Assembly: GCA_025454275.1 (NCBI GenBank)
Contig: JALOOS010000005.1
Span: forward strand, 1-33,192
Reading direction: 5' to 3'
DNA length: 33,192 bases
DNA from: Desulfobacterales bacterium
GTDB taxonomy: Bacteria > Desulfobacterota > Desulfobacteria > Desulfobacterales > SpSt-501
Positions 1 to 33,192 of this stretch are shown one piece after another. Within the stretch, counting starts at the first letter, position 1. Each line of letters begins with the position of its first letter. The translations under genes were made by a program, and so were the position numbers. The notes under the pieces were generated by a model that was not told the DNA's origin, did no database searches, and saw only the letters and a list, made by a program, of their open reading frames with translations.

Positions 1-2240
1 TTGGCGTAGATGACCTTGCTGTCGCCGGGCGCGTAGAAATCCTCGAGCACCGATGCCGTGCGAAATCCCGTGCGCTCATAGAAGGCGCGGGTGCTGGCAT
101 ACTGCGGCCGGCCCGAAGTATCCGCGTAGAGCGTTGCCCCTCCCGCCTGACGGATCAACCGCTCCACCTCCATGAGGATCATTCGCCCGAGGCCCTTGCC
201 CTGGTTGTCGGGGGCCACCACGATCCAATAGAGGTCGAAGGCCGAGACCGTCATGGGCACCGGCCCATAGCAGGCATAGCCAGTCGTCTGGCCGTTCCGC
301 TCCATGAAGACGAAATGGTACCCGCTGGCCGCTCCCTTGGCGATACGCTCCAGCACAAGCTCTTCGGCGACGATCACCTCGGCGCGGCTGAAGAAGCCGG
401 TGGCCTCCGCCAGGCGACGCACGCGCTGGGGGTCCTGGGGCTCCACGTGGTGCCGGAGCCGGTAGGTCGCAACGGCCGGCGGCGCCGCCCGGCGGCGCGG
501 CGCGGCGGCGCAATGCGCGGCGGAGAGGCCCTCGAAAAAGGCGCGGGCGTTCATTCCCAGCGTGCGCGTCCGGTAGCCTCCCTCCTGCACGACCAGAACG
601 GGGATGCCGAGCTCCCCGATCATCCGCCCGTTGTGGCGGAAATCGGTGCGGGTCAGCGTCCAGGTGCCGGTAGGGTCTCCTTTGGCGGCATCCAGTCCGA
701 GCGCCACGACCAGGAAATCGGGGTCGAAATTCGCGATGCGCCGCAGGGCCGTCGCCAGCGCCTTGCGATAGCGTTCGCCGTCGATCGCCTCCGGCAGGGG
801 CAGGTTCAGGTTGAAACCGGCGCCCTCGCCGCTGCCGATCTCGTCGCGGAAGCCTGAGAAATAGGGGTAGGCGAAACTCGGGTCCCCGTGGATCGAGACC
901 GTCAGGACGTCCGGGCGGTCGTAGAAAATCTCCTGTTGGCCGTTGCCGTGGTGGTAGTCGATGTCGAGAATGGCCACCCGACCCTGCCGGCGCAGGAATT
1001 GGGCGGCGATGGCCGTGTTGTTGAAATAACAAAACCCGCCGAAGGCGCGCCGCTCGGCGTGGTGACCCGGCGGCCGCACGAGGGCGTAGGCCATCCGCCG
1101 CCCGTGGATGAGCTCCTGGGCGGCGGTGAGGGTGCAGTTCACGGCGCCGCGCGCGGCGGCATAGGCGTGGCGGGTAATCGGGGTGAAGGTGTCGATGCAG
1201 AAGTAGCCGGCCAGCACCGAACGGTCTTTCGGGGGGCGGGCCTTGTTGCGGATCGGAAAGACGTAGGGATAGATGGGGTCGTCCTCCTGGATCTCGGCGC
1301 AGGTCCGGCGGAGGAAGTTCACGAAATCGGCATCGTGCACGCTGAGCAGGAGTTTTTCCGGGAAAACCGCGGCCGGAAGGATGTCGAACAGAGGGCCGGC
1401 GGCTATTTCCGACAGAATGCTGCGCACCCGCGCCGGGGCTTCGACGTAGCCGCGCTCGTGTACGTGGTGAATCGCATGCTGGTCGTGAAATACAAGGACG
1501 ATCTTTTCGCAGGGGGTGCCGGCGAGGGCCGGGGCCACCGAGGCAGGCGTGAGGTAGCGGAACTCGCGGAGCCGGACCGGGTCCTCCGTAATGGAGGCGA
1601 CCACCTTCTCCACATATTCCGGGGGAACGGCGCCGGCGTACTTGCGCTCCAGGATCGTGCGGGCCACCGCGCGCATGAAGTCACGCCCCGGCCGTTCGGT
1701 CCGGTCCAGCCCGTCGAACATCAGGTAGGGCATGCAGGTCTGGCCGGCCTTGTACGGGGTCTCGTAGGCCGTGCCGATGATCGGGCGCGCCCCGTAGCGC
1801 TCGTAGAACCTCAGCCGCGCCCGGTTGTCGGGGAGAAGCGCCTCCTGAGGGCAGAGGGCCGAATCATCCGGCAGGCATTCGAAAAAGAGGGCCTGGGCGC
1901 CGGAGGCCGCGGCCTCCTGGCGCACCCGTTCGTAGAGCGCACCGCCCACTCCGCCGCTGGCCCGGCCGACCCGGGTGGCGATCCAGTCGAGGTAGCAGAA
2001 GCGGATGCGGGGCTCGTGCAGGAGAACGGCAAATCCCAATACGCGCCGGCGGCCGTCCTCCGCCACCGAAAGGGTGGTGCGGAACCGTTTCAGAAAAGGG
2101 TCGTGGAGATGGCGGCCGAGCTGGTCGATTTCGGCCGCGGGGACGGCCGCGAAGCGGCTGCGCATGATCGCCTTCACCTGCTCCAGCGCGGCCCGGTTGA
2201 CCGGCAGCACCTCGTCGTAAACGCGGCGGATGCGGAACAT
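1..2240 (-). CDS. GNAT acetyltransferase - Zn-dependent deacetylase (HDAC/acetylpolyamine amidohydrolase family) - GNAT acetyltransferase three-domain fusion; 3' end lies beyond the window
   Basis: Missing from the ORF track because it has no stop in the window. Hand translation from ATG 2240 (MFRIRRVYDEVLP) is stop-free to base 1 (>746 aa). N-terminal GNAT-like part: CYLDWIAT..GGVGGALYER..RLRFYERYGA. Deacetylase motifs: RPPGHHA, GGFCYFNN, LDIDYHHGNG, GLDAAKGD, VQEGGY. C-terminal GNAT: FDLYWIVVAPDNQGKGLGR, TRAFYERTGF. Confidence 0.9.
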   Translation of the reverse strand, partial: MFRIRRVYDEVLPVNRAALEQVKAIMRSRFAAVPAAEIDQLGRHLHDPFLKRFRTTLSVAEDGRRRVLGFAVLLHEPRIRFCYLDWIATRVGRASGGVGGALYERVRQEAAASGAQALFFECLPDDSALCPQEALLPDNRARLRFYERYGARPIIGTAYETPYKAGQTCMPYLMFDGLDRTERPGRDFMRAVARTILERKYAGAVPPEYVEKVVASITEDPVRLREFRYLTPASVAPALAGTPCEKIVLVFHDQHAIHHVHERGYVEAPARVRSILSEIAAGPLFDILPAAVFPEKLLLSVHDADFVNFLRRTCAEIQEDDPIYPYVFPIRNKARPPKDRSVLAGYFCIDTFTPITRHAYAAARGAVNCTLTAAQELIHGRRMAYALVRPPGHHAERRAFGGFCYFNNTAIAAQFLRRQGRVAILDIDYHHGNGQQEIFYDRPDVLTVSIHGDPSFAYPYFSGFRDEIGSGEGAGFNLNLPLPEAIDGERYRKALATALRRIANFDPDFLVVALGLDAAKGDPTGTWTLTRTDFRHNGRMIGELGIPVLVVQEGGYRTRTLGMNARAFFEGLSAAHCAAAPRRRAAPPAVATYRLRHHVEPQDPQRVRRLAEATGFFSRAEVIVAEELVLERIAKGAASGYHFVFMERNGQTTGYACYGPVPMTVSAFDLYWIVVAPDNQGKGLGRMILMEVERLIRQAGGATLYADTSGRPQYASTRAFYERTGFRTASVLEDFYAPGDSKVIYA

Positions 2241-2243
2241 GAC

Positions 2244-3254
2244 TCACCCCCCCTTGCGCCCGGCCGCAGCGATAATGCGCGCCACGGCCGTCTGGAAGGG
2301 AATGCCGGCTGTTTCCAGTGCGGCCGCAAAACCGGCATCAGGCGAAAGGCAGGGGTTGGCGTTGATCTCGAGGATCCAGGGCTCTTCCCCGCCATCGACC
2401 CGGAAATCGACCCGGGCGTAGCCGTTCAATCCGAAGAGCTTCCAGCAGCTCAGGGCCAGGGCTCCCAGCCGCTCCAGCAGGGCGGCATCCTGCCGCGGAA
2501 ACTCGAACCGGCGAGGGGTGTGGCTGAATTCGAAGGAGTCCGGATCCCACTTGGCGCGGTAGCCGACGATGCGCGGCCGGTTTTCGGGATAGCCTTCGAA
2601 GAGAATTTCCGCCGGGGGCAGGAGTTGCGGGCCTTGGGGCGCGGCCAGCAGCGACAGGTTGAACTCCCGGCCGGCGATGAAGCACTCGGCGAAACAGGCG
2701 CCGCCGAGGCGCGGGGCCCTTTCCGGGAGCGCCGCCGCGGCTTCGGTCGCGTTCTGCATGAGCGTGAGATCCGTTTCGTCGAGACCGATCGAGGCATGCT
2801 CCCACACCGATTTGACGATCCATTGCGCACCCGGCGGCGTCTCCGGGGGGGCGGCCAGGTCCGGGGCGTCTGCCGGGAAAGGGCCGATCCAGGCCGGTGT
2901 CGGCAGGCGGGCCGCGGAGAGAAGCTGCTTGGCGAGGATCTTGTGGGAGGTGAGGGCGACGGCCTCCGCCGGAGCCCCGGTGTAGGGCAGGCCGAGGGCA
3001 TCCAGGAGGCCGGGAACCAGGTGGATCAGGCGCCCCGTGCGGTCCAGGGATTCCACCAGGTTGAACACGCAATCGGGCGCAAGCTCAGCCAGGCGCCTCT
3101 TCGCCAGGGCCAAATCCAGGCTGCAGGGCAGGGGGACAGCCGTATGGCCGAGCGCGTGCAGGGCGGCCGCTACCGCGTCGACCTGAACCTCGACATCGCG
3201 TGCATCGGGTGCCTCATGGTCATCGACGGCATTGTGGGCGATGACTACGCGCAT
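2244..3254 (-). CDS. D-Ala-D-Ala-ligase-like ATP-grasp amide ligase (paralogue B)
   Basis: 336 aa. Motifs VFNLVES, LPYTGA, WIVKSVWEHASIG, ECFIAGREF, GYARVDFR, LEINANP. Lacks the GGxSxE N-terminal motif of cell-wall Ddl. Overlaps the upstream gene by 10 nt. Confidence 0.85.
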   Translation of the reverse strand: MRVVIAHNAVDDHEAPDARDVEVQVDAVAAALHALGHTAVPLPCSLDLALAKRRLAELAPDCVFNLVESLDRTGRLIHLVPGLLDALGLPYTGAPAEAVALTSHKILAKQLLSAARLPTPAWIGPFPADAPDLAAPPETPPGAQWIVKSVWEHASIGLDETDLTLMQNATEAAAALPERAPRLGGACFAECFIAGREFNLSLLAAPQGPQLLPPAEILFEGYPENRPRIVGYRAKWDPDSFEFSHTPRRFEFPRQDAALLERLGALALSCWKLFGLNGYARVDFRVDGGEEPWILEINANPCLSPDAGFAAALETAGIPFQTAVARIIAAAGRKGG

Positions 3255-4258
3255 GGCCGCGCGCGCGCAGCGGGCACGGGGATCCGCATCCCGGCGGAGG
3301 CAAGGATCCGGGCGATCAGCTGGTCGAAGGAGATGCCGGCCAGGCCGCAGATGATCGGCAGATCGGAGTGTTCGGGATGCAGCCCGGCGAGCGGGTTCAC
3401 TTCCATGAACTGCGGCCGGCCGCGCCGGTCGCAGCGCAGGTCGAGCCGGCCGGCGTCCCGGCAGCCGAGGACCCGCCAGGCGTTCAGGGCGATCGCTTCG
3501 ACCTCGGCTACCAGCGGGTCCTCTTCCGGGCGCAGGAGCCGGTAGCGCACCAGCTCCTCGGAGTTCTCCTTGTTGTGATAGGAATAGACCTGCTGCTCGG
3601 CGGCCGCTAGAAGCAGCACTTCCATCGTCCCCAGGACCTCCGCTCGCGGCCCGGTGCCGATCACGGCGGTCGTGAACTCCCGGCCGGGCAGAAACCGCTC
3701 CACGAGCACCGGCTGCCCGTAGGCGGCGAGCAGGGCGCCGCAGGCCGGCGGCAGGGCACGCCGGGAGCGGACGATGGAGCTGGCGGAGACGCCCTTGCCG
3801 GTGCCCTCCGCCACGGGCTTGATGAAGTAGGGCGGCCCGAAGCGGATCTCCGCCGCCGCCTCCGGCGAGGCCGCGACGCCGAAATCGCAGGTGGGGATCC
3901 GGGCGTCGCGGATCACGTGCTTGGTCATGCCCTTGTGCAGGGTGAGGCTCATGACCAGCGGGTCTGAAAAGGTATACGGGATTCGGTAGGCGTCGAGAAG
4001 CGCGGGAACCTGGGCTTCGCGGCCGATCCCGGTCAACCCTTCGGCAATGTTGAACACGAGGTCCCAGCGGCCGCCCGCCGCCAGGCGCTCCACCAGCTGT
4101 TGGACGTTTCCGATCCGGTCGGTCTCGTGGCCCAACCGGCGGAGCGCCGCCTCGATGGCCGCAATCGTCTCCTCGCGGTCGAACTCGGCCGTTTCGTCTT
4201 CCGAGTACCCCCGCGCCAGGTACTCGCTCCTCAGATCGTATGTCAGGCCGATCCGCAT
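3245..4258 (-). CDS. D-Ala-D-Ala-ligase-like ATP-grasp amide ligase (paralogue A)
   Basis: 337 aa. Motifs VFNIAEG, IPYTFSD, FIKPVAEGTGKG, ERFLPGREF, AGRLDLR, MEVNPLAG. No GGxSxE motif. Confidence 0.85.
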   Translation of the reverse strand: MRIGLTYDLRSEYLARGYSEDETAEFDREETIAAIEAALRRLGHETDRIGNVQQLVERLAAGGRWDLVFNIAEGLTGIGREAQVPALLDAYRIPYTFSDPLVMSLTLHKGMTKHVIRDARIPTCDFGVAASPEAAAEIRFGPPYFIKPVAEGTGKGVSASSIVRSRRALPPACGALLAAYGQPVLVERFLPGREFTTAVIGTGPRAEVLGTMEVLLLAAAEQQVYSYHNKENSEELVRYRLLRPEEDPLVAEVEAIALNAWRVLGCRDAGRLDLRCDRRGRPQFMEVNPLAGLHPEHSDLPIICGLAGISFDQLIARILASAGMRIPVPAARARPCA

Positions 4259-4274: not shown

Positions 4275-5600
4275 TCAGGAACCGATCACGTCCGGGTAGC
4301 GGTACTGACGGTCGCAGTAGTTGCGCAGCAGCAGCATGTCCCCCTCGCGTCCCTCCACGTAGTTCGGCATCAGCGGGATTTTACCGCCGCCGCCGGGGGC
4401 GTCGATCACATAGGTGGGCACGGCGTAGCCGCTGGTGTGGCCCCGCAGGCCGCGGATGATGTCGAGGCCGGATTCGACCGCCGTGCGGAAATGGCTCGAC
4501 CCGGTGATCGGGTCGCACTGGTAGATGTAGTACGGCCGCACCCGCATGCGCAGCAGCTGGTGACAGAGCGCGGTCATGGTGGCGACGTTGTCATTGATCC
4601 CCTTGAGCAGCACGGTCTGGGAGCCCAAGGGGATGCCCGCGTTTGCCAGCCGCTCGCAGGCGCGGGTCGCCTCCGGCGTACACTCGGAGGGGTGGGTGAA
4701 ATGCAGGCTCATCCACAGGGGATGGTAGCGCCGCAGCACGCGGACAAGATTCGGGGTGATGCGCTGGGGCAGCACGGCCGGGACCTTGGTGCCGATCCTG
4801 AGAATTTCCACATGCGGGATCGCCCGCAACTGGGAGAGCAGCCACCCGATGCGCTCATCGTTCAAGGTCAGGGGGTCGCCGCCGGAGATCAGGACGTCCC
4901 GCACCGCAGGTGTTGAGCGGATATACTCGATGGCGCGCTCCAACCGCGAACGGCTGGGGTAGATGGCGCCGTGGCCCACCACGCGGGAGCGCGTACAGTA
5001 GCGGCAATAGGTCGAGCAGAAATCCAGCACCAGCAGCAGGACCCGGTCCGGGTAGCGGTGTACCAGGCCGGGGACCGGGCTCATGGAGTCTTCGCCCAGG
5101 GGGTCGTCGGCCTCCTCCGGCGTGGTGATGAACTCGGCTGCCGTGGGCACCACCGTCCGGCGCAGCGCCTCCTGCGGGTCGTCCCGGGAGACCAGGCTCA
5201 TGAAGTAGGGCGTAATGCCGACCGGCAGCCGGGACTGGATTTTCTCGACCGCCGCGCGCTCCGGTTCGGAGAGGTTCAACATGCGCTCCAACTGATCCAT
5301 GTGACGGATCCGGTGGCGGATCTGCCACTGCCAGTCATTCCACTCTTTGTCGGTTACAGCGGGGAAAAAGGTGCGGCGAAACGCGGCCGTCTTGGGGTTC
5401 GAGGCGGGGCGTGACCGGGAGGCCGGAAAGACCGAAACCTTCCCTCTTAAACGCGGCGTGATGTCGGGTAATGGGACAACGTTTTGAAGACAGGCTGCAG
5501 AACCGGGAGGTTCGTCCTCGTTTTCACCTGCCAGCTCCCCGCCTGACCCCGGCACGGAGGCGCTGACAGGTTGCTGAAAACTCGCCGCATCTGGTTTCAT
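4275..5600 (-). CDS. kamA: KamA-family radical SAM/PLP 2,3-aminomutase (lysine 2,3-aminomutase-like)
   Basis: Radical-SAM motif CSTYCRYC, plus LVHRYPDR, SGGDPL, YIYQCD and the PLP-lysine motif DAPGGGGKIP. Start placed at ATG 5600 behind AAAGGAG (441 aa); the ORF-track start at 5741 lacks an RBS. Confidence 0.9.
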   Translation of the reverse strand: MKPDAASFQQPVSASVPGSGGELAGENEDEPPGSAACLQNVVPLPDITPRLRGKVSVFPASRSRPASNPKTAAFRRTFFPAVTDKEWNDWQWQIRHRIRHMDQLERMLNLSEPERAAVEKIQSRLPVGITPYFMSLVSRDDPQEALRRTVVPTAAEFITTPEEADDPLGEDSMSPVPGLVHRYPDRVLLLVLDFCSTYCRYCTRSRVVGHGAIYPSRSRLERAIEYIRSTPAVRDVLISGGDPLTLNDERIGWLLSQLRAIPHVEILRIGTKVPAVLPQRITPNLVRVLRRYHPLWMSLHFTHPSECTPEATRACERLANAGIPLGSQTVLLKGINDNVATMTALCHQLLRMRVRPYYIYQCDPITGSSHFRTAVESGLDIIRGLRGHTSGYAVPTYVIDAPGGGGKIPLMPNYVEGREGDMLLLRNYCDRQYRYPDVIGS

Positions 5601-5675: not shown

Positions 5676-5789
5676 TATGCTGGTTCCATCGGTGATGCTT
5701 TTTACGACGGAGGTGGTTCTGCCGGCCCCGCTGTGCGGCATTACCTGAGAATCAGCCCTTTACCCCCTCGATATGGTATTTTGGCGGCG

Positions 5790-6064: not shown

Positions 6065-6382
6065 ATGCCTCGACCACCGAAACGAACGAAAAAGAGAGCC
6101 CCTTCACGGCGCCGGATCGAATTCGTCCTGGACAGCCCTCAGGCGAAACAGGTGATACTGATGGGGGATTTCAACCAGTGGGATCCCAAGGTCCACCCGA
6201 TGAAAAAAGACTCCGGCGGCCTTTGGCGCCGGCGGGTGATGATCCATCCCGGGCGCTATGAGTATCGTTTCTGGGTGGATGGGGAGTGGGTCAACGATCC
6301 TCAGAATCCCGAGCGCTGTCCCAACTGCTTCGGCAGCGAAAACAACCTCATCACCGTGACGGATCGAACCGCGCCCGCCTGA
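6065..6382 (+). CDS. Stand-alone glycogen-binding (CBM48/AMPK-beta-like early-set) domain protein
   Basis: AAAGGAGG precedes ATG 6065 (105 aa). Motifs AKQVILMGDFNQW, GRYEYRFWVDGEWVNDP, FGSENN; basic N-terminus. Confidence 0.85.
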   Translation: MPRPPKRTKKRAPSRRRIEFVLDSPQAKQVILMGDFNQWDPKVHPMKKDSGGLWRRRVMIHPGRYEYRFWVDGEWVNDPQNPERCPNCFGSENNLITVTDRTAPA

Positions 6383-11157: not shown

Positions 11158-12066
11158 TCAGAGCGCCTCCGGCACAAAGGCCACGACCGCGTCGATCGCG
11201 GCCGCATCGCAGAAGAGCATCGCCAGCCGATCGAGGCCGAGTGCGTTTCCGGCGCAGGCGGGCAGGTCGGCCAGTGCCGCAAGGAATCGCTCCGGCAGCG
11301 GGGTCACGGTTTTTCCGGCGGCGCGCTGGCGCTCCTGCTCGGCTTCGAATCGGCGCCGCTGCTCGCGCGGCTCGTTCAGCTCGCTGAAGCCGTTGCAAAG
11401 CTCCAGGCCGCCGATGTAAAGCTCGAAGCGTTCGGCCACCCTTGGATCGCCGGGCTTCAGGCGGGCGAGAGAAGCGTGTTCGGCGGGGTAGTCGACCAGG
11501 AAGGTCGGCCGCTGTCGGCCGAGATGAGGTTCGATCGCAAGCCCCATCCATTCGTCGAAGCGGCCCTGCGCCAGGGCCTCCGCGACCGGAACGGGAGCGA
11601 AGCGGGAGAAGGCTTCGGCCACGCTCAGCCGCTCCCAGGGCAGGGAGAGATCGATCGCAAGCCCCTGGTAGGTGAGCGTTCGGTCCGAGCCCAGCTCGCC
11701 CGCAATGGAGCGCACCAGCGCCTCGCAGTCGCGCATCAGGTCGTTGTAGGAGGCGCCGGCGGCATACCACTCGATCAGGGTCATCTCCGGCAGGTGCCGC
11801 CGCCCCCGCTCCGCCTTGCGGAAACATTTGCTGATCTGGAAGATGCGTTCGCAGCCGGCGGCGAGCAGCCGTTTCATGCAGATTTCGGGCGAGGGCTGCA
11901 GCACCCACCCCTCGGCGGTGATGAACTCGATGTGGGCCTCGGGCAGCGCCGCCGGCAGGCGCAGCGGGGTCTCCACCTCGAGGTAGCCGCCGGAACGGAA
12001 GAAACGGCGGACAGCGTCCACGATTGCGGCGCGTCGCTCCAGATTGCGTTGGTTGGGGTGCGGCAT
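11158..12066 (-). CDS. epmA: EF-P beta-lysyl transferase EpmA (GenX/PoxA)
   Basis: 302-aa class II LysRS-like catalytic domain with no anticodon domain. Motifs LEVETP, LQPSPEICMKRLL, HLPEMTLIEWY, ERFELYIGGLELCNGFSEL, ALGLDRL. Confidence 0.92.
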   Translation of the reverse strand: MPHPNQRNLERRAAIVDAVRRFFRSGGYLEVETPLRLPAALPEAHIEFITAEGWVLQPSPEICMKRLLAAGCERIFQISKCFRKAERGRRHLPEMTLIEWYAAGASYNDLMRDCEALVRSIAGELGSDRTLTYQGLAIDLSLPWERLSVAEAFSRFAPVPVAEALAQGRFDEWMGLAIEPHLGRQRPTFLVDYPAEHASLARLKPGDPRVAERFELYIGGLELCNGFSELNEPREQRRRFEAEQERQRAAGKTVTPLPERFLAALADLPACAGNALGLDRLAMLFCDAAAIDAVVAFVPEAL

Positions 12067-12472: not shown

Positions 12473-12808
12473 CTAGTAGCGCCGGCCGCCGCCGGCGCCG
12501 CGCGCGAACCCGGAACCGGGACGGCCGCCGCGGCCGCCGCCGAAGCCGCCCTCCCGCTCTTTGCGCTCCCGGGCCTCGCTGACGGTGATCCGCTTGCCGC
12601 GCAACTCCCCTCCGTTGAACTGCGCGATCGCCTTCTGGGCCTCCTCCTCGCTTTCCATCTCCACGAACCCGAACCCTTTGCTCTGGTTGGAAAACCGGTC
12701 CTTTATGATGGCGACGGAGGCCACTTTGCCCACGGATGAAAAATTGTGGGTCAGGTCCGTTTCCGTGACATCGCTCGCCAGATTGCCGATGTAAAGCCGC
12801 TTGTTCAT
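12473..12808 (-). CDS. RRM (RNP-1) RNA-binding protein with Gly/Arg-rich tail
   Basis: Start MNKRLYIGNL (RNP2), KGFGFVEM (RNP1), tail GGFGGGRGGRPG...GGGRRY; 111 aa. Confidence 0.93.
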   Translation of the reverse strand: MNKRLYIGNLASDVTETDLTHNFSSVGKVASVAIIKDRFSNQSKGFGFVEMESEEEAQKAIAQFNGGELRGKRITVSEARERKEREGGFGGGRGGRPGSGFARGAGGGRRY

Positions 12809-12868
12809 GATCCAGATCCTTTCATTTTCGTAAAGGGTGGGGTGCCGGGCGGCCGCTGATGCGGACAG

Positions 12869-27167: not shown

Positions 27168-27923
27168 TCAGGGCGGGCCGTAGAGCGTGCCCAGGAAATG
27201 GTTCATCTGGCGGTACCACCAGGGCCAGTCGTGGTTGACCTCCGGGCCCCAGAAATCGACCCAGGCGGGGGTTGCCTTTTCGCGGAAGATGCGATCCAGT
27301 GCGCGGGTGTCCTCGATCGCCTCCTCCTCCCAGGCCCCCTGGCCGACGCAGACGATGATCCGGCTCCGTCGATACCAGTCGAGAAACCACGGGTCGTTCA
27401 GACCCGGCAGATAGGAGAGGGGTGAATTGAAATAGACCGCGGGGAGATCCTCCGGCCCCAGGCCGAACTCGGGACGGTCGAGCCGGTAGAGGCCGGAGAG
27501 GGCGATGGTCCCCTCGCAGGCGTCGGGGTGCTTGAGGAAGAAATTCACCGCATGGTAGGCGCCCATGCTGCAGCCGGTCGCCATGGGCCGCTCCCCCGGC
27601 GTGGCGCAGTGCCCGCGGATGAAGGGCACGACCTCCTGAACGATGTATGCATCGTAGGCTTCGTGGCGGGCGTTGCGCTCGGCCGGCGGGATGCCGGTGT
27701 GGTACCAGGACTCGGCATCCACGCTGTCGACGGCATAGAGCTTGATCCGGCCGGCGTTGATGAAGGGGGCGATTTCGGCCACCATGCCCAGCCCCTCGAA
27801 GTCGAAGTACCGACCCCGGGAGCAGGGAAAGACGATGAAGGGCTTGCCCCAATGGCCGTAGACCTTGAGCTCCATCCCGCGGTTGAGATGCGGACTCCAC
27901 CAGTGGTGATGTTCGGTGTGCAT
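27168..27923 (-). CDS. Alpha/beta-hydrolase, putative esterase family
   Basis: Nucleophile elbow GCSMG and C-terminal HDWPWW. Start MHTEHHHWWS with GAGGGG SD; 251 aa. Confidence 0.88.
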   Translation of the reverse strand: MHTEHHHWWSPHLNRGMELKVYGHWGKPFIVFPCSRGRYFDFEGLGMVAEIAPFINAGRIKLYAVDSVDAESWYHTGIPPAERNARHEAYDAYIVQEVVPFIRGHCATPGERPMATGCSMGAYHAVNFFLKHPDACEGTIALSGLYRLDRPEFGLGPEDLPAVYFNSPLSYLPGLNDPWFLDWYRRSRIIVCVGQGAWEEEAIEDTRALDRIFREKATPAWVDFWGPEVNHDWPWWYRQMNHFLGTLYGPP

Positions 27924-27939
27924 GGCCCCTCGTTTCCGG

Positions 27940-29115
27940 TCAGCCGGAGCCGCCGGGTGCATGGATGAACCGGACCGCCTCGATCACCTCTGCGAGGTCC
28001 GGTGCGCGGAAGATGTAGCCGATGTCGCCGAGCGCACTGCGAAAGACCCCCGGAACGCTCTCCACCTGCAGGATCAGGTGGCCGAAGCGCGAGAGGACCT
28101 CCTGGTGAGCGTGCGCGTAGCGGGCGGTCTGCTTGCGGCTCGCGTAGCAGCAGTGGTAGCGCCGTTCGTAGTCGAGATCGGCGCGGCCGTGGACCAGGAG
28201 CTCGGCCCAGGCGCGGTAAATGTCGATGTCGGCCGTGTAGTTGAACATGTCGGTCGTGTAGCCGCCCGGGGGCCGCATGTTGACCTCGAGCGCCACGTAC
28301 TCGCCGGCTGCGGTGCGGAAGAACTCCATGTGAAAGAAGCGCTCGCGCACCTCGAAGTGGGCCAGGCAGCTCCGCCCGATCCGTTCGAGCTCTTCAGGGA
28401 TCTCCCTGAGGGAGTAGTAATAAATGTGGCGCTCCTCGTTTACGGTCTCCATGATGCCCTGGCTGAAGACATGGGCGGTCATGAAGAGCGGGTTTCCGGC
28501 CGCATCCGCCAACCCGTCGAAGGAGTGGATGGTGCCGGTGATGAACTCCTCCAGGATGTACGCCACCGGGGGGGGATTGCCGAAGAAGGCCTCGAGGTCG
28601 GCCGCGGAGTCGAGGCGGAAGGTGTCCAGCGCCCCCACTCCGATATCGGGCTTGGCGATCAGGGGGTAGCCGGTTTCGGCGGCGAGGGCGCGCCCCTCCT
28701 CGAGGGATCGGGCCACCCGGCCCCGGGCGACCCGCACCCCGGCCTGCCGGAAGCGCTCCTTCATCTTCGATTTGCGGCGAATCACGTCGATGCCCGCCCG
28801 GCGCACGCCGGGTATGTTGAAGTCGTCCCGGATCCGGGCCTCGGTGCCGAGCCAGTACTCATTCAGGGAGTCGAAGCGGTCGATTTTCCCGTAGCGGTGG
28901 GTGAAGTAACCGCAGGCCCGGATGAGGGCATCGTCATCGTGCATGTCGTCGACGCGGTAGTACTCGGTCAGCGCCGCGCGCAGCTCCCCGGGCAGGCTCT
29001 CGCAGGGCGCATCGCCGATGCCGAGCGCATTGGCCCCCGCCTGCCGGATCCGGGCCCAGAAGCGCCGGTAGTGCGGCGGAAAGTGGGGCGAGAGCAGCAC
29101 GATGTTGCGGTTCAT
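27940..29115 (-). CDS. ATP-grasp domain protein (carboxylate-amine ligase-like), paralogue B
   Basis: SPHFPPHY, SLNEYWL, PLIAKPDIGVGA, YILEEFI, FFHMEFF, LEVNMRPPGG. Confidence 0.88.
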   Translation of the reverse strand: MNRNIVLLSPHFPPHYRRFWARIRQAGANALGIGDAPCESLPGELRAALTEYYRVDDMHDDDALIRACGYFTHRYGKIDRFDSLNEYWLGTEARIRDDFNIPGVRRAGIDVIRRKSKMKERFRQAGVRVARGRVARSLEEGRALAAETGYPLIAKPDIGVGALDTFRLDSAADLEAFFGNPPPVAYILEEFITGTIHSFDGLADAAGNPLFMTAHVFSQGIMETVNEERHIYYYSLREIPEELERIGRSCLAHFEVRERFFHMEFFRTAAGEYVALEVNMRPPGGYTTDMFNYTADIDIYRAWAELLVHGRADLDYERRYHCCYASRKQTARYAHAHQEVLSRFGHLILQVESVPGVFRSALGDIGYIFRAPDLAEVIEAVRFIHAPGGSG

Positions 29116-30284
29116 GTCGCCGGGCCTGTCTGCCGCAGGGCGGCGGCGATGGCGGGGATCTCGGATTCGTTGGGGGTGCGGAAGAGGTAGCGCACCCGGC
29201 CCATGATGTCCTGGTAGACCGCCGGGTTTTCGGCCGTCTCCACGAGCAGCGGCCCGTAGCGGGCGAGGATCTCCTCGTGGGAGAGGGTGTAAGCCTTATC
29301 GGTGCGGCCGATGTAGGCGACGGCGTATTTCTTCTCGCGCGGCAGCTCGACGGGCTTCCCCGTCACCATGCAGGCCCAGGCGCGGTAGAGGTCCCCGTCC
29401 ACGCTGAAGTTCATCATGTCCAGGATGGCTCCGCCGGGCGGGCGGCTGTTGATCTCCATGGGGAGATAGACGCCCCCGCGCTCGAAGAACTCGAAGTGGA
29501 AGAACTTGCGGCGGATGCCGAACGCGGCGACCAGGGCGGCGCCGATCGCGGGCAGCGCCTCCGGAATGCGGCGGCTGACATAGAAGTAAGGGTCCGTGCC
29601 GCGGGTGTATTCGATCAGCCCCTCGCCGTAGACCAGCGTGTTGCCGAAAAGGATCCGCCCCTGCCGGTCGGTGAGCCCGTCGTAAGTGACGATCGGGGCG
29701 TCGATGAACTCCTCCAGGAGATAGCCGGCGGGGAGCTCCGGGAACACCGTGCGCAGCGCCTCCGGGCTCTCGACCCGGTGGGTGCCGCCGGCGCCCACCC
29801 CCTCGTCCGGCTTGAGGATCACCGGGTAGCCGACCTCCGCGGCGAGGCGCAGGGCGTCGTCCAGCTCGGCCACCGGCCCGCCGCGGGCCGCGGGCAGGCC
29901 GAGGCTGCGGAAAACCTGCTTCATGAGCGATTTTTTCTTGATCGTCTCGGTTTCCTGGAGCGAGAGCCCGGGCACGCCGAAACGCTCGTTGAGGATCGCC
30001 TCCAGCCGCAGCCAGGTTTCGTTGTGCGATTCCACGAGGTCGAAGGTGCCCTCGTGTCCCAGGGCGTGCTTCGCCTCCAGCAGCTCTTCGACGGCGCGCA
30101 CCGCGCGCCGCCAGTTTTTGAGTTCGGTGCGCACATACCAGCGGATCGCGGCCCGCAGATCGGGGGCCATGGAGAAGAACTCGGTCTCCCCGATGGCCCA
30201 CACCCGTGCTCCCAGGGCGTCCGCCTGACGGATGAAGTGGGTGTAGTTGGGCGGGAACTCGGGTGAAATGTAGAGAATGTCCAT
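29112..30284 (-). CDS. ATP-grasp domain protein, paralogue A
   Basis: Start MDILYISPEFPPNY (ATG 30284); SHNETWL, PVILKPDEGVGA, YLLEEFI, FFHFEFF, MEINSRPPGG. ATGA overlap with the next gene. Confidence 0.88.
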   Translation of the reverse strand: MDILYISPEFPPNYTHFIRQADALGARVWAIGETEFFSMAPDLRAAIRWYVRTELKNWRRAVRAVEELLEAKHALGHEGTFDLVESHNETWLRLEAILNERFGVPGLSLQETETIKKKSLMKQVFRSLGLPAARGGPVAELDDALRLAAEVGYPVILKPDEGVGAGGTHRVESPEALRTVFPELPAGYLLEEFIDAPIVTYDGLTDRQGRILFGNTLVYGEGLIEYTRGTDPYFYVSRRIPEALPAIGAALVAAFGIRRKFFHFEFFERGGVYLPMEINSRPPGGAILDMMNFSVDGDLYRAWACMVTGKPVELPREKKYAVAYIGRTDKAYTLSHEEILARYGPLLVETAENPAVYQDIMGRVRYLFRTPNESEIPAIAAALRQTGPAT

Positions 30285-30328
30285 GGCCTCGTCTCCGGCC
30301 GGGTCGCACGCATCGGCCTCACCGGGCG

Positions 30329-30356
30329 ATTCTAAGACAGGCGCAGGAGGGGTCAA
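30329..30356 (-). promoter_or_regulatory. Putative sigma70 promoter of the ATP-grasp/esterase operon
   Basis: TTGACC-16 nt-TAGAAT, about 45 nt upstream of ATG 30284. Confidence 0.5.
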
Positions 30357-30374
30357 GCCCGGCGGCGGCGATTC

Positions 30375-32249
30375 TCAGGCGAGTTCGTCGAAACGGCAGG
30401 TGAGGGAGACCCCTTCCCCGTCGAAGGCGCTCTTCACCTTGTAGGGCAGGGTCTTGAAGAGCCGGATCATGGCCTGGTTGCCCGGGGTGGTGTAGGCGAT
30501 CAGGCCGAAGACCCCGTTTTCACGCGCCGCATCGGCCAGTTTGCGCAGGATGCGGCGCGCGATGCCCTTGCCCTGGTAGTTTTTGTTGACCGAGAAGGCC
30601 ACCTCGGCCATGTTCGTCCTGGGCAGGAGCATGCACTCGCCGACCGCCACCACGCGGCCGAAGCCGAATTCACCCACCAGGGCGAGCAGGGTCAGGTCCT
30701 TGACGTAGTCGATCTGGGAGCGGGACTCGACCTCCGTGCGCGGGAAGCTGGTCTTCTCGTGCATGAACCGCGAAAAGATATCGTCCTTGTCCAGGCTGTA
30801 GAAGTGCTCCTGGATCCGGCGCTCATCGACCGGCTTGGCGGGCCGGATGGTGACTTCCTCCCCCTCGACCGCCATGGTCTCTTCGAGCTTCACCGGGTAG
30901 ATGCCGCGCACCGCCTCGCCCAGGGTGCGCTCCGTGCCGATCAGGCCGAGCTCCTTGGCGTCGGCGAAGAGGCGCTCGCGGAAATCGGGGTGGGCGATGC
31001 TGATCATGCCCATCACCCGCTCCTGCAGGCTTTTCCCGAAGAGGTTGAAGATCCCGTATTCGGTGGCCACGTAGTGGACATCCGCGCGCGGCACGGCCAC
31101 GTTGGTGTTGTTGAGGAGCGGTACGATGGTGCTGGTTCGTCCGTCGTCCGCGGTCGAGAAGAGCATGATGATCGATTTGCCGCCGGGCGAGCGCTTGGCG
31201 CCCCGCACGAAGTCGACGATGCCGGAGGTCCCCGCGAAGAAGGTCAGGGCCGAGGCCTCCACCTCCACCTGGCCGGTCAGGTCCATGGTGCGGGCGACAT
31301 TCATGGAGACCATGCGGTGATGGCGCGAAATGATGAACGGGTCGTTGACGTAGTCGGAGGGGTGGAAGTCGACCGCCGGGTTGTTGTCCAGGAAGTCATA
31401 CAGGTTGCGGGAGCCGATCGCGGCCGAGGCGACGATCTTGCCCTCGTTGAAACCTTTCAAACGGTTCGTGATCACGCCCTGGGAGTAAAGGTGCATGATG
31501 TCGTCGGTGATGAACTGGGAGTGCACCCCCAGATCGTTTTTTTCGCTCAAGGCCTGGATGGTCGCCTGGGAGGCGGCGTCCAGGCCGATCTGCAGGGTCG
31601 AACCGTCTTCGATCAGCCTCGCGATCAGCGTGCCGATGCGCGCGGCGGTTTCCGAGGCCGAGCCCGGGGGGACGGTCATGAGATCCTCGTCGTGCTCGAC
31701 GATCAGATCCACGTCGTTGACGTGGATGAAACTCTGGCCGAGCACCCGCGGCATGTTCGAGTTCACCTGGGCGATGAGCAGGTCTGCGGAGAGGGCCGCG
31801 GCCCGGGTCACGTCGACCGAGATGCCGAGGCTCATCCAGCCGAAATCGTCGGGCGGCGAGGTCTGAACGAGCGCCACGTGGATCGGCAGCTTCTGGGAGG
31901 TGAAGAGGTCCGGGACCTCGGACATGTTCATCGGGGTGATGAAGCGCTTGTGACGGGCGATCGACTCGGCGTTGCTGGCGCCGAGATAGATGGTGCGGAT
32001 GTTCAGGGCGAAATCCTGGGTCTGGTCGGCGAGCGAGGAGAGGGCGGCGGTCTCCCGGCTCATCAGCCGCACCACCTCGAGCCCGCTCAGCTTCCCGGCG
32101 GACTCGAAAAGCGCCTGGACCAGGGCCTGGGGCTGGCCGCAGGCCGAACCGATGAAAACGCGCTGGCCGGGCCGGATCAGCCGCATGGCCTCGTCGGCGC
32201 GGCGGCGCTTTTCGAGATAGGCATCCGCCCAGTAGGTGGATTTCGGCAC
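30375..32249 (-). CDS. Acetyl-CoA hydrolase/transferase-family domain fused to a C-terminal GNAT acetyltransferase
   Basis: GTG start (PKSTYW) with GGAG SD; 624 aa. CoA-transferase motifs VFIGSACGQP, SPPDDFG, DGSTLQIG, DFVRGA, VATEYG. GNAT part IRPAKPVDE...AEVAFSV..YQGKGIA...NQAMIRLF. Confidence 0.9.
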   Translation of the reverse strand: MPKSTYWADAYLEKRRRADEAMRLIRPGQRVFIGSACGQPQALVQALFESAGKLSGLEVVRLMSRETAALSSLADQTQDFALNIRTIYLGASNAESIARHKRFITPMNMSEVPDLFTSQKLPIHVALVQTSPPDDFGWMSLGISVDVTRAAALSADLLIAQVNSNMPRVLGQSFIHVNDVDLIVEHDEDLMTVPPGSASETAARIGTLIARLIEDGSTLQIGLDAASQATIQALSEKNDLGVHSQFITDDIMHLYSQGVITNRLKGFNEGKIVASAAIGSRNLYDFLDNNPAVDFHPSDYVNDPFIISRHHRMVSMNVARTMDLTGQVEVEASALTFFAGTSGIVDFVRGAKRSPGGKSIIMLFSTADDGRTSTIVPLLNNTNVAVPRADVHYVATEYGIFNLFGKSLQERVMGMISIAHPDFRERLFADAKELGLIGTERTLGEAVRGIYPVKLEETMAVEGEEVTIRPAKPVDERRIQEHFYSLDKDDIFSRFMHEKTSFPRTEVESRSQIDYVKDLTLLALVGEFGFGRVVAVGECMLLPRTNMAEVAFSVNKNYQGKGIARRILRKLADAARENGVFGLIAYTTPGNQAMIRLFKTLPYKVKSAFDGEGVSLTCRFDELA

Positions 32250-32269
32250 GGCTCTTCTCCCGGTACGGT

Positions 32270-33192
32270 TTAAAATGGGGTAGGGGGGGTGCCGGTGTGC
32301 TGGATATCGGCCAGCAGGCGGCGGCACTGCTCGAAGGAGAGCCGGCGGACGAAGCCGATGGTCTCGATTTCGTTGCGGGTATGCGGATAGTCGCCCGGGG
32401 CGGGCACCATCTCCTCTTTGGCGAGCAGTTTGTTGTAAACCAGGGCGGCGGCGGCCAGATGGTCGTCGTGGAGGCTGCCCGGCCGCGCGGGGCAAAAAAG
32501 GTAGCGCAAAGTGAGGAGGTCGCCGGGGCCGAAGAGGTGAGCTCGCCCCGCATGGGTTCGATACACCGGTTCCAGGACGAAGCAGCGTGTCAGCCGGCTT
32601 CGCCCCGCAAGCCGCCGGCGCAGCTCCCTCCAGAGGGCCTGGTGGATCTCACCGGCTTCAATCAGCGTGCTCGTGTGCCCCGGAACGACCGCGGCAATGG
32701 CCGTTGCCCGGAGATCGTCCCGCAGCCGGAAGCGGTCGGCATCGGCCCGAGCGAAGCGTTTGACCGCCTCCAGGGTCTCGCCGAAGCTGCCTTCTGCGGC
32801 CGCTTCATAGAATTCCAGCAAACGGCCGGTGGCCACCCGCTCGGCGGCATAGACCGGGGCGAGGTCCGGATCGGCCGCCACGGCGGCGGGGGGCTCCCCG
32901 TCGGCCAGGCGCTCGTGGATCGCGACCAGCGCCTCCAGGAAGGGCTCCACCTGGAAGATGCGATGGCCCCGGCGGTGGAGGTCCCGGAGGAGACCGCACA
33001 GGCCGCGGCTGTATTCGGGATACTCCAGGTCGAGGGGCAGCAGGTAGTCTTCCACCGCAAGCTCCCCTTCAAGCATCGATGCCAGCCGCGGGTCCGGCGG
33101 CTCCTCCAGGACGATGGCCTCATGGCCGGAGGCGATCTCCGCCCAGAGGGGCAGGGTCTCGGGCCGGTGGGTCGAAAAGGCGACGGTGACGT
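32270..33192 (-). CDS. Hypothetical protein, 5' end beyond the window (weak TraB/ChaN-like motif pattern)
   Basis: Frame is open to the window edge (VTVAFSTHRPETL...IVLEEP...RLRDDLRA...IEAGEIH) with host-like codon bias. Confidence 0.7.
   Translation of the reverse strand, partial: VTVAFSTHRPETLPLWAEIASGHEAIVLEEPPDPRLASMLEGELAVEDYLLPLDLEYPEYSRGLCGLLRDLHRRGHRIFQVEPFLEALVAIHERLADGEPPAAVAADPDLAPVYAAERVATGRLLEFYEAAAEGSFGETLEAVKRFARADADRFRLRDDLRATAIAAVVPGHTSTLIEAGEIHQALWRELRRRLAGRSRLTRCFVLEPVYRTHAGRAHLFGPGDLLTLRYLFCPARPGSLHDDHLAAAALVYNKLLAKEEMVPAPGDYPHTRNEIETIGFVRRLSFEQCRRLLADIQHTGTPPTPF

Follow-up and report, generated by a model that had tools for sequence, protein, structure and literature searches.

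The window, a contig of 33,192 nucleotides analysed here over its full length, begins with a gene for a single polypeptide, P0001, in which a zinc-dependent deacetylase is flanked on both sides by GNAT acetyltransferase domains, and this three-domain fusion is real. It is the last gene in a row that also encodes a KamA-family enzyme and two ATP-grasp ligases. Sequence comparison across the phylum indicates that the chain consists of two modules, a C-terminal GNAT that follows the ligases and an optional N-terminal GNAT-deacetylase. We propose, with the chances about even, that this two-gene fusion protein adds and removes an acetyl group on a small beta-lysine amide, the predicted product of the operon. 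The features discussed below are the following.

1..2240, minus strand: three-domain gene P0001 (GNAT-deacetylase-GNAT); 746 residues visible, 3-7 more expected, open at the contig end
1545..2240, minus strand: N-terminal GNAT (N-GNAT); residues 1-182 form the core, followed by helices that extend it to about residue 232; G97-x-G99, E121, N139 and Y146 conserved
525..1505, minus strand: Zn-dependent deacetylase, residues 246-572, acetylpolyamine amidohydrolase type; H393/H394, D426/D428/H430, D517, Y556
459..524, minus strand: Ala/Pro/Arg linker, residues 573-594, the fusion point; low model confidence, relaxed selection
3..464, minus strand: C-terminal GNAT (C-GNAT), residues 593-746, a homologue of 2R7H (Dde_3044); QGKGLG, D707, Y714, Y721
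2244..3254, minus strand: second Ddl-like ATP-grasp ligase, 3 bp from the fusion gene; relatives often have the C-GNAT fused to this ligase
3245..4258, minus strand: first Ddl-like ATP-grasp ligase, with clear ATP-grasp homology
4275..5600, minus strand: radical SAM enzyme of the KamA family (lysine 2,3-aminomutase type); start placed at 5600 from a ribosome-binding-like site

The three-domain gene and its domains

The minus-strand frame from 2240 to 3 contains no stop, as the first-pass annotation had it, over 746 codons and was missed by the stop-to-stop ORF track because it is open at the contig end. The contig (C150) is the whole window, and no other contig of the genome overlaps its end. 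The C-termini of the 15 closest homologues lie 3-7 residues beyond the last visible residue of P0001, suggesting that the contig end removes only the last few codons. The best 119 homologues are 735-766 residues long, and an identical protein of 746 residues is present in a public protein collection. Among the 80 best GTDB loci, a set biased toward close matches, 71 have the same three domains in one ORF; the remainder are two-domain genes (3), genes cut by a contig end (3) and genes broken inside the deacetylase (3). A cultured organism, Desulfatitalea alkaliphila M08but (L029), also carries the fused form. Contigs from four sequencing runs cover P0001 with substitutions and without indels. 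One of them, from run X5, covers positions 358-968 and thereby the linker, in which the stop or frameshift that would have undone the fusion was looked for and is absent; run X5 is not flagged as a possible source of the assembly, as run X1 is. The first domain boundary is spanned by contigs of X5, X6 and X8, and contigs of X1, X5 and X6 extend beyond the window edge. The homologues and the indel-free contigs of other runs rule out an assembly artefact as the cause of the fusion.

The linker, which had been placed at about 530-460, was found at 524-459, and the catalytic and acetyl-CoA motifs lie where they had been read: RPPGHH at residues 389-394, D426-x-D428-x-H430, GLD517, EGGY at 553-556, the canonical QGKGLG of the second GNAT at 680-685, and RASGGVGG at 93-100. 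In comparison with six close relatives, dN/dS is 0.26-0.51 in the linker, 0.115-0.137 in the N-GNAT, 0.080-0.105 in the deacetylase and 0.111-0.175 in the C-GNAT, which points to purifying selection on both GNATs, like that on the deacetylase.

The central domain matches Pfam Hist_deacetyl over residues 266-571 (E 8.8e-77). Its catalytic motifs, described as intact from P0001 alone, are so throughout the family, as the His pair, the Zn ligands and the XGGY tyrosine are invariant in all 65 rows of an alignment in which two rows are the same record; together with the arginase-like fold of the predicted model they place the domain in the HDAC family. Sequence scores are far better with polyamine amidohydrolases (E 1e-73 to 1e-62) than with bacterial HDAH/HDLP-type chains (1e-36 to 1e-32), and acetylpolyamine amidohydrolases (ApaH) are also the closest structural match of the predicted model (40% identity, TM 0.89, rmsd 2.5). 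The RPP and XGGY motifs of ApaH are present, and the extended L2 loop is kept, collinear with 3Q9B and 9GKZ, with R331 equivalent to R95 in 65/65 rows. Several specificity positions differ. S341 stands in place of the acidic, polyamine-binding E106 of the M. ramosa enzyme (most rows have Ser, Pro, Ala or Tyr here), F352 (Phe in 64/65) replaces E117, which presumably has a role in polyamine binding, PTG is found instead of the gatekeeper motif PIS in 65/65 rows, and R398 occupies the D163 position, where the R95-D163 salt bridge of ApaH has no counterpart. The domain also has conserved motifs of its own (YPYxFPxRN, CIDTFTP and DPTG). It might represent a deacetylase subfamily whose specificity pocket is altered. 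A prediction of the head-to-head dimer that closes the active site in ApaH scored 0.09 for this domain, which speaks neither for nor against such a dimer. The accessible text of PMC11532494 lists the L2 loop with Arg95, PIS, the R95-D163 pair and acidic amine-binding residues as marks of ApaH (cluster 4), and describes PsApaH, which lacks E106, as a polyamine deacetylase nonetheless. The same text reports activity of PsApaH on peptides and on one protein, acetylated AcsA, so that protein substrates can be envisaged for this fold.

The N-terminal region had been called GNAT-like, a reading that the lack of a GNAT fold would have refuted; both Pfam and the predicted structure show such a fold. 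Scanned alone, the N-terminal 240 residues pass the Acetyltransf_1 cut-off (22.8 versus 20.7 bits), and 34 of 37 family members match as well. The predicted model (pLDDT 95.3) aligns with 2WPW over 168 residues (Z 15.7, rmsd 2.9) and with 2R7H at Z 15.2, and its top Foldseek matches are GCN5-type protein acetyltransferases of 11-15% identity, tied with small-molecule GNATs. A search of the ESM Atlas returned generic GNAT clusters only, and a search of 50% clusters many short, probably fragmentary matches. Motif A is atypical, as had been noted: of the pattern R/Q-x-x-G-x-G/A the GxG is kept (65/65) and the R/Q is absent, position 94 being mostly Thr or Ala, which seems to lower the canonical status of the domain and not its GNAT membership. 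An Arg is found at position 96 in 8 of the 20 two-domain rows and in none of the 45 fused rows. E121 and Y146 are invariant in the 65 relatives and N139 is found in 64; E121, N139 and Y146 pair, in this order, with D707, Y714 and Y721 of the C-GNAT (hhalign 96.7%) and, in the register given by the C-GNAT, with E103, N108 and Y115 of RimI. E103 and Y115 are the catalytic base and acid proposed for RimI in the accessible part of PMC3347575; that of PMC8556138 accepts Y115 and names no acidic base. The N-GNAT thus has a base, a motif-B Asn and a Tyr acid of the RimI type.

The C-GNAT has a Pfam GNAT match at residues 638-727 and is closely related to 2R7H (E 7e-48; profile E 1e-61). Position 707 is Asp or Glu, and position 721 Tyr, in 120/120 sequences; at position 714 a Tyr is found where the motif-B Asn is expected.

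Gene context and distribution of the two modules

The genes lie on one strand in the order kamA, ddl-like, ddl-like, fusion gene, with gaps of 16, -10 and 3 bp. Of the 71 three-domain loci, 54 have kamA and both ligase genes within 6 kb, seven the ligase genes only and ten neither. KamA matches 2A5H at E 8e-138, and its CxxxCxxC motif is invariant in 82/82 loci, as are the residues at the positions of R134, D293, D330 and K337 of 2A5H, which we take to be the lysine- and PLP-binding ones. It scores above the KamA subfamily cut-off and below the TIGR03820 equivalog cut-off (487.7 versus 525.4 bits), although TIGR03820 remains its best model. Both ligases fall below all listed NCBIfam Ddl cut-offs (155 and 94 bits versus 243). 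At E 1e-30 a single KamA-family gene is found in each of the 27 genomes of the genus, none of which shows a separate EpmB; the only visible source of beta-lysine would be the KamA of the operon. KamA and EpmB products are opposite beta-lysine enantiomers. RNA-run contigs are sparse and short and lie mostly over the 5' part of kamA; two of them stop at 5757, which is no more than a weak hint, and a promoter scan gave two sigma-70-like sites versus 0.8 expected, which is not significant.

Several other genes were observed around these loci. EpmA is encoded at 11161-12066 (minus strand, above cut-off), 5.5 kb upstream of the operon, and scores above cut-off in 24 of the 27 genus genomes; an EF-P with a PGKG lysine loop is encoded elsewhere in the genome (G000:C191:6614-7162). 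A cysteine-rich ORF of 174 residues, with a weak, below-cut-off match to PF03692 (CxxCxxCC), is present at 19 loci, at one of them between kamA and the first ligase gene (L068:3159-3683), and none was seen in the window. The window also contains a small stand-alone gene for a CBM48/AMPK glycogen-binding domain, divergent from kamA (6065-6382, plus strand), a gene for a single-RRM RNA-binding protein (12473-12810, minus strand), and at 27168-32495 (minus strand) a further cluster, with genes for a fusion of acetyl-CoA hydrolase/transferase and GNAT, for two ATP-grasp proteins and for a putative esterase.

To count how often the last GNAT is fused or separate, as had been suggested, the N-GNAT, the first ligase and the C-GNAT were searched in one even draw of 300 genomes of the phylum. 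The N-GNAT was found in 18 genomes, in all 18 accompanied by the deacetylase, and only four of these copies have three domains, the other 14 having two. A close first ligase (at least 48% identity, a chosen cut that leaves out 30 weaker matches) is encoded by 53 genomes, about one in six; 46 of them have the C-GNAT, in 42 within 6 kb of the ligase. The N-GNAT-deacetylase is present in 13 of the 53 genomes with a close ligase versus 5 of the 247 without, counts that are not independent since the genomes are related, and it was not detectable in the other 40 of the 53. In seven of the 13 genomes having both, it lies within 6 kb of the ligase. Of the five N-GNAT genomes in which the close ligase is missing, one (G036) has a divergent operon adjoining and another (G288) a 40% match elsewhere. 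At three loci (L093, L094, L095) the two-domain gene and the C-GNAT gene are separate but lie next to each other, in precisely the order seen in the fusion, and are unfused precursors in that sense. The N-GNAT-deacetylase unit has become part of the operon in no fewer than three gene arrangements. Near its stand-alone copies no recurring neighbour was found at E 1e-25 among the 52 scanned of 109 candidate flanking ORFs.

A tree of N-GNAT plus deacetylase (65 rows, with 45 of 77 fused sequences kept; a quick, thinned LG+G4 tree without outgroup, root unplaced) groups all 45 fused rows in one clade with a support of 99, requiring two changes versus 17.3 after shuffling. Four two-domain rows are nested in this clade as sister to the group of the window, which suggests a fission in that lineage; a fused-only clade was not rejected by an AU test (p 0.063). 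Fusion of the C-GNAT to the second ligase, found in nine of 57 rows of a ligase and C-GNAT tree, needs seven changes; this tree was likewise quick, thinned and without outgroup (LG+G4), and two of its rows labelled separate (L024, L063) are frameshifted three-domain genes. These data indicate that the usual form is not the three-domain chain, which arose by fusion of adjacent genes and is restricted to one clade, and the writer-eraser-writer arrangement is less surprising because it is a gene fusion at the level of a clade. The alignment gave no support for retention of the linker of P0001 at the ligase::C-GNAT junctions. Frameshifts or stops in the deacetylase were observed in L137 (G001), L024, L063 and L083, and in L137 kamA and the first ligase gene are broken as well, suggesting assembly errors there.

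Within the genus the N-GNAT-deacetylase is frequently absent. All 14 good genomes encode KamA and one copy of the C-GNAT, while the N-GNAT is found in six and the other eight have no N-GNAT-deacetylase match. Thirteen further kamA loci of the genus all retain both ligases, of which one has the full three-domain gene, two a ligase::C-GNAT fusion and ten neither; kamA and the two ligase genes are thus without an N-GNAT-deacetylase at 12/13 of these loci. Ligase::C-GNAT fusions occupy the same locus in G016, G004, G013, G332 and G331, and in the first three of these a stretch corresponding to about 430-2275 of the window is missing at the same Lon-flanked locus. In G007 a scar remains, consisting of the first 21 codons of the three-domain gene (L150:4333-4484) between the second ligase gene and a yitT-family gene. 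The chain has thus been dismantled several times, with the C-GNAT as the part that genomes keep. At eight loci (L134-L136, L138-L140, L142, L143) the gene is lost beside kamA and one C-GNAT of 51-56% identity is encoded elsewhere, with no ligases nearby; arfB recurs beside some displaced C-GNATs and beside one two-domain copy.

Proposed function and alternatives

In the scheme that we put forward, with substrates that we infer throughout and an order of steps that is a guess, KamA would supply beta-lysine, and the two ligases would join it by an amide bond to a partner molecule. The C-GNAT would carry out a core step, N-acetylation of beta-lysine or of the ligated product, and the optional N-GNAT-deacetylase would take the acetyl group off again, in turnover or salvage, and place one on another amine. 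Both GNATs would be catalytic, on different substrates, and joining the domains in one chain would tie their expression and stoichiometry together, adding no new chemistry. The target of P0001 is likely a small molecule built from beta-lysine rather than proteins. Of the first-pass interpretation, the general idea of small-molecule acetylation and deacetylation tied to the neighbouring ligases finds support, but the two specific mechanisms offered with it, acetyl protecting-group chemistry and a GNAT acting as acyl-CoA sensor, are both weakened.

The N-GNAT-deacetylase could instead be an acetylation-deacetylation pair for polyamines or diamines that shares the operon only loosely. The best relatives in sequence and structure are acetylpolyamine amidohydrolases, the long L2 loop and the R95 equivalent R331 are kept in 65/65 rows, and many copies of the unit lie away from the operon; on the other hand genomes with the ligase have the unit more often than those without, it has entered the operon repeatedly, and E106, E117 and PIS are replaced, albeit this is a weak argument since PsApaH itself lacks E106. 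We regard this alternative as unlikely. An obligatory protecting-group cycle, in which one beta-lysine amine is masked by a GNAT ahead of ligation and freed by the deacetylase once ligation is complete, is quite unlikely. Beta-lysine has two amines, and masking could set the regiochemistry; fusions of the C-GNAT to the second ligase have arisen repeatedly, and some HDAC-family gene, possibly a stand-in deacetylase, is present in all 31 genomes examined. Yet such a cycle fits poorly because the module is optional, being absent from 40/53 close-ligase genomes, 8/14 good genus genomes and 12/13 genus loci, and the accessible text of a paper on mangotoxin holds no precedent for this chemistry.

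Also quite unlikely is a protein lysine writer/eraser that switches the ligases, KamA or an acyl-CoA synthetase in the manner of AcuA/AcuC, a known opposed pair in one operon according to the accessible text of PMC8556138. The action of PsApaH on acetylated AcsA (PMC11532494, same portion as above) and the GCN5-type Foldseek matches of the N-GNAT would fit it, but these matches are remote and tied with small-molecule GNATs, the deacetylase is far closer to polyamine amidohydrolases, and no target gene recurs among the 52 ORFs flanking stand-alone copies. That the N-GNAT is a non-catalytic acyl-CoA sensor switching the deacetylase is very improbable, for although it always accompanies the deacetylase in the 18 phylum matches, lacks the Arg/Gln of motif A, has Arg at position 96 in some two-domain rows only, and inactive GNAT domains exist in Eis-type enzymes (accessible text of PMC8556138), a pure sensor role is hard to reconcile with the RimI-type E121 and Y146 kept in 65/65 relatives and N139 in 64, and both GNATs keep the GxG loop, base and acid under apparent purifying selection.

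If acetylation and deacetylation of a beta-lysine amide is the correct reading, the acetyl group might be moved between two amines, for instance turning a neutral storage form of the compound into a charged, active one and back, and the same KamA may feed beta-lysylation of EF-P, linking the beta-lysine pool to translation. We extend this, tentatively and with considerable doubt, to a widespread, undescribed pathway in sulfate reducers and their relatives, in which an acetylated beta-lysine amide is finished and reversibly edited by one chain. Since a close ligase is encoded by 53 of the 300 genomes drawn from the phylum, anoxic sediments may commonly contain the metabolite. The fused, split and re-fused variants that nature provides could assign domains to steps and offer ready comparisons.

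Comparison with known systems

The superfamilies of all three domains are known; their arrangement and the pathway were not found in the literature searched. Full-text searches returned no description of the fusion or operon, of which the operon may be mentioned in an ATP-grasp neighbourhood survey (Iyer et al. 2009), and the portion of PMC11532494 that was accessible contains no GNAT-deacetylase fusion, some of which its supplements may list.

The ApaH enzymes of M. subterrani (6PHR), Pseudomonas (9GKZ) and M. ramosa (3Q9B) share the fold of the predicted deacetylase model (TM 0.88-0.92, 36-40% identity), the Zn ligands, the His pair, RPP and EGGY, and the long L2 loop with the R95 equivalent. 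Here, in contrast, one or two GNATs are added, E106 is replaced by Ser, E117 by Phe, D163 by Arg and PIS by PTG, and kamA and two ligase genes adjoin. AcuA/AcuC of Bacillus subtilis likewise combine an acetyltransferase with a Zn deacetylase encoded alongside it, but they are separate proteins, with a deacetylase of cluster 2c and the protein substrate AcsA (PMC11532494, accessible text).

AblA/AblB, which form N-epsilon-acetyl-beta-lysine, similarly combine a lysine 2,3-aminomutase with a GNAT; the two ligases and the deacetylase are extra here, neither GNAT domain matches TIGR03827 (AblB) at E 0.1, and AblB was found in 0/27 genus genomes, in a search that detected the positive controls. Streptothricin acetyltransferases acetylate the amino-acyl (beta-lysine) arm of streptothricins. 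Three of them, 7YPU (OrfE), 5C82 and 3PP9, are the top PDB matches of the N-GNAT profile (E 3e-6 to 3e-4); structural comparison does not distinguish them (7YPU ranks 47th, Z 13.1), and this likeness is a lead only.

Finally, Dde_3044/2R7H, annotated as a putative D-alanine N-acetyltransferase, belongs to the family of the C-GNAT but is a stand-alone chain. A literature search for its function found no paper, and its name is an annotation rather than the result of an assay; a function for this orphan structure would follow from the role proposed here for the C-GNAT.
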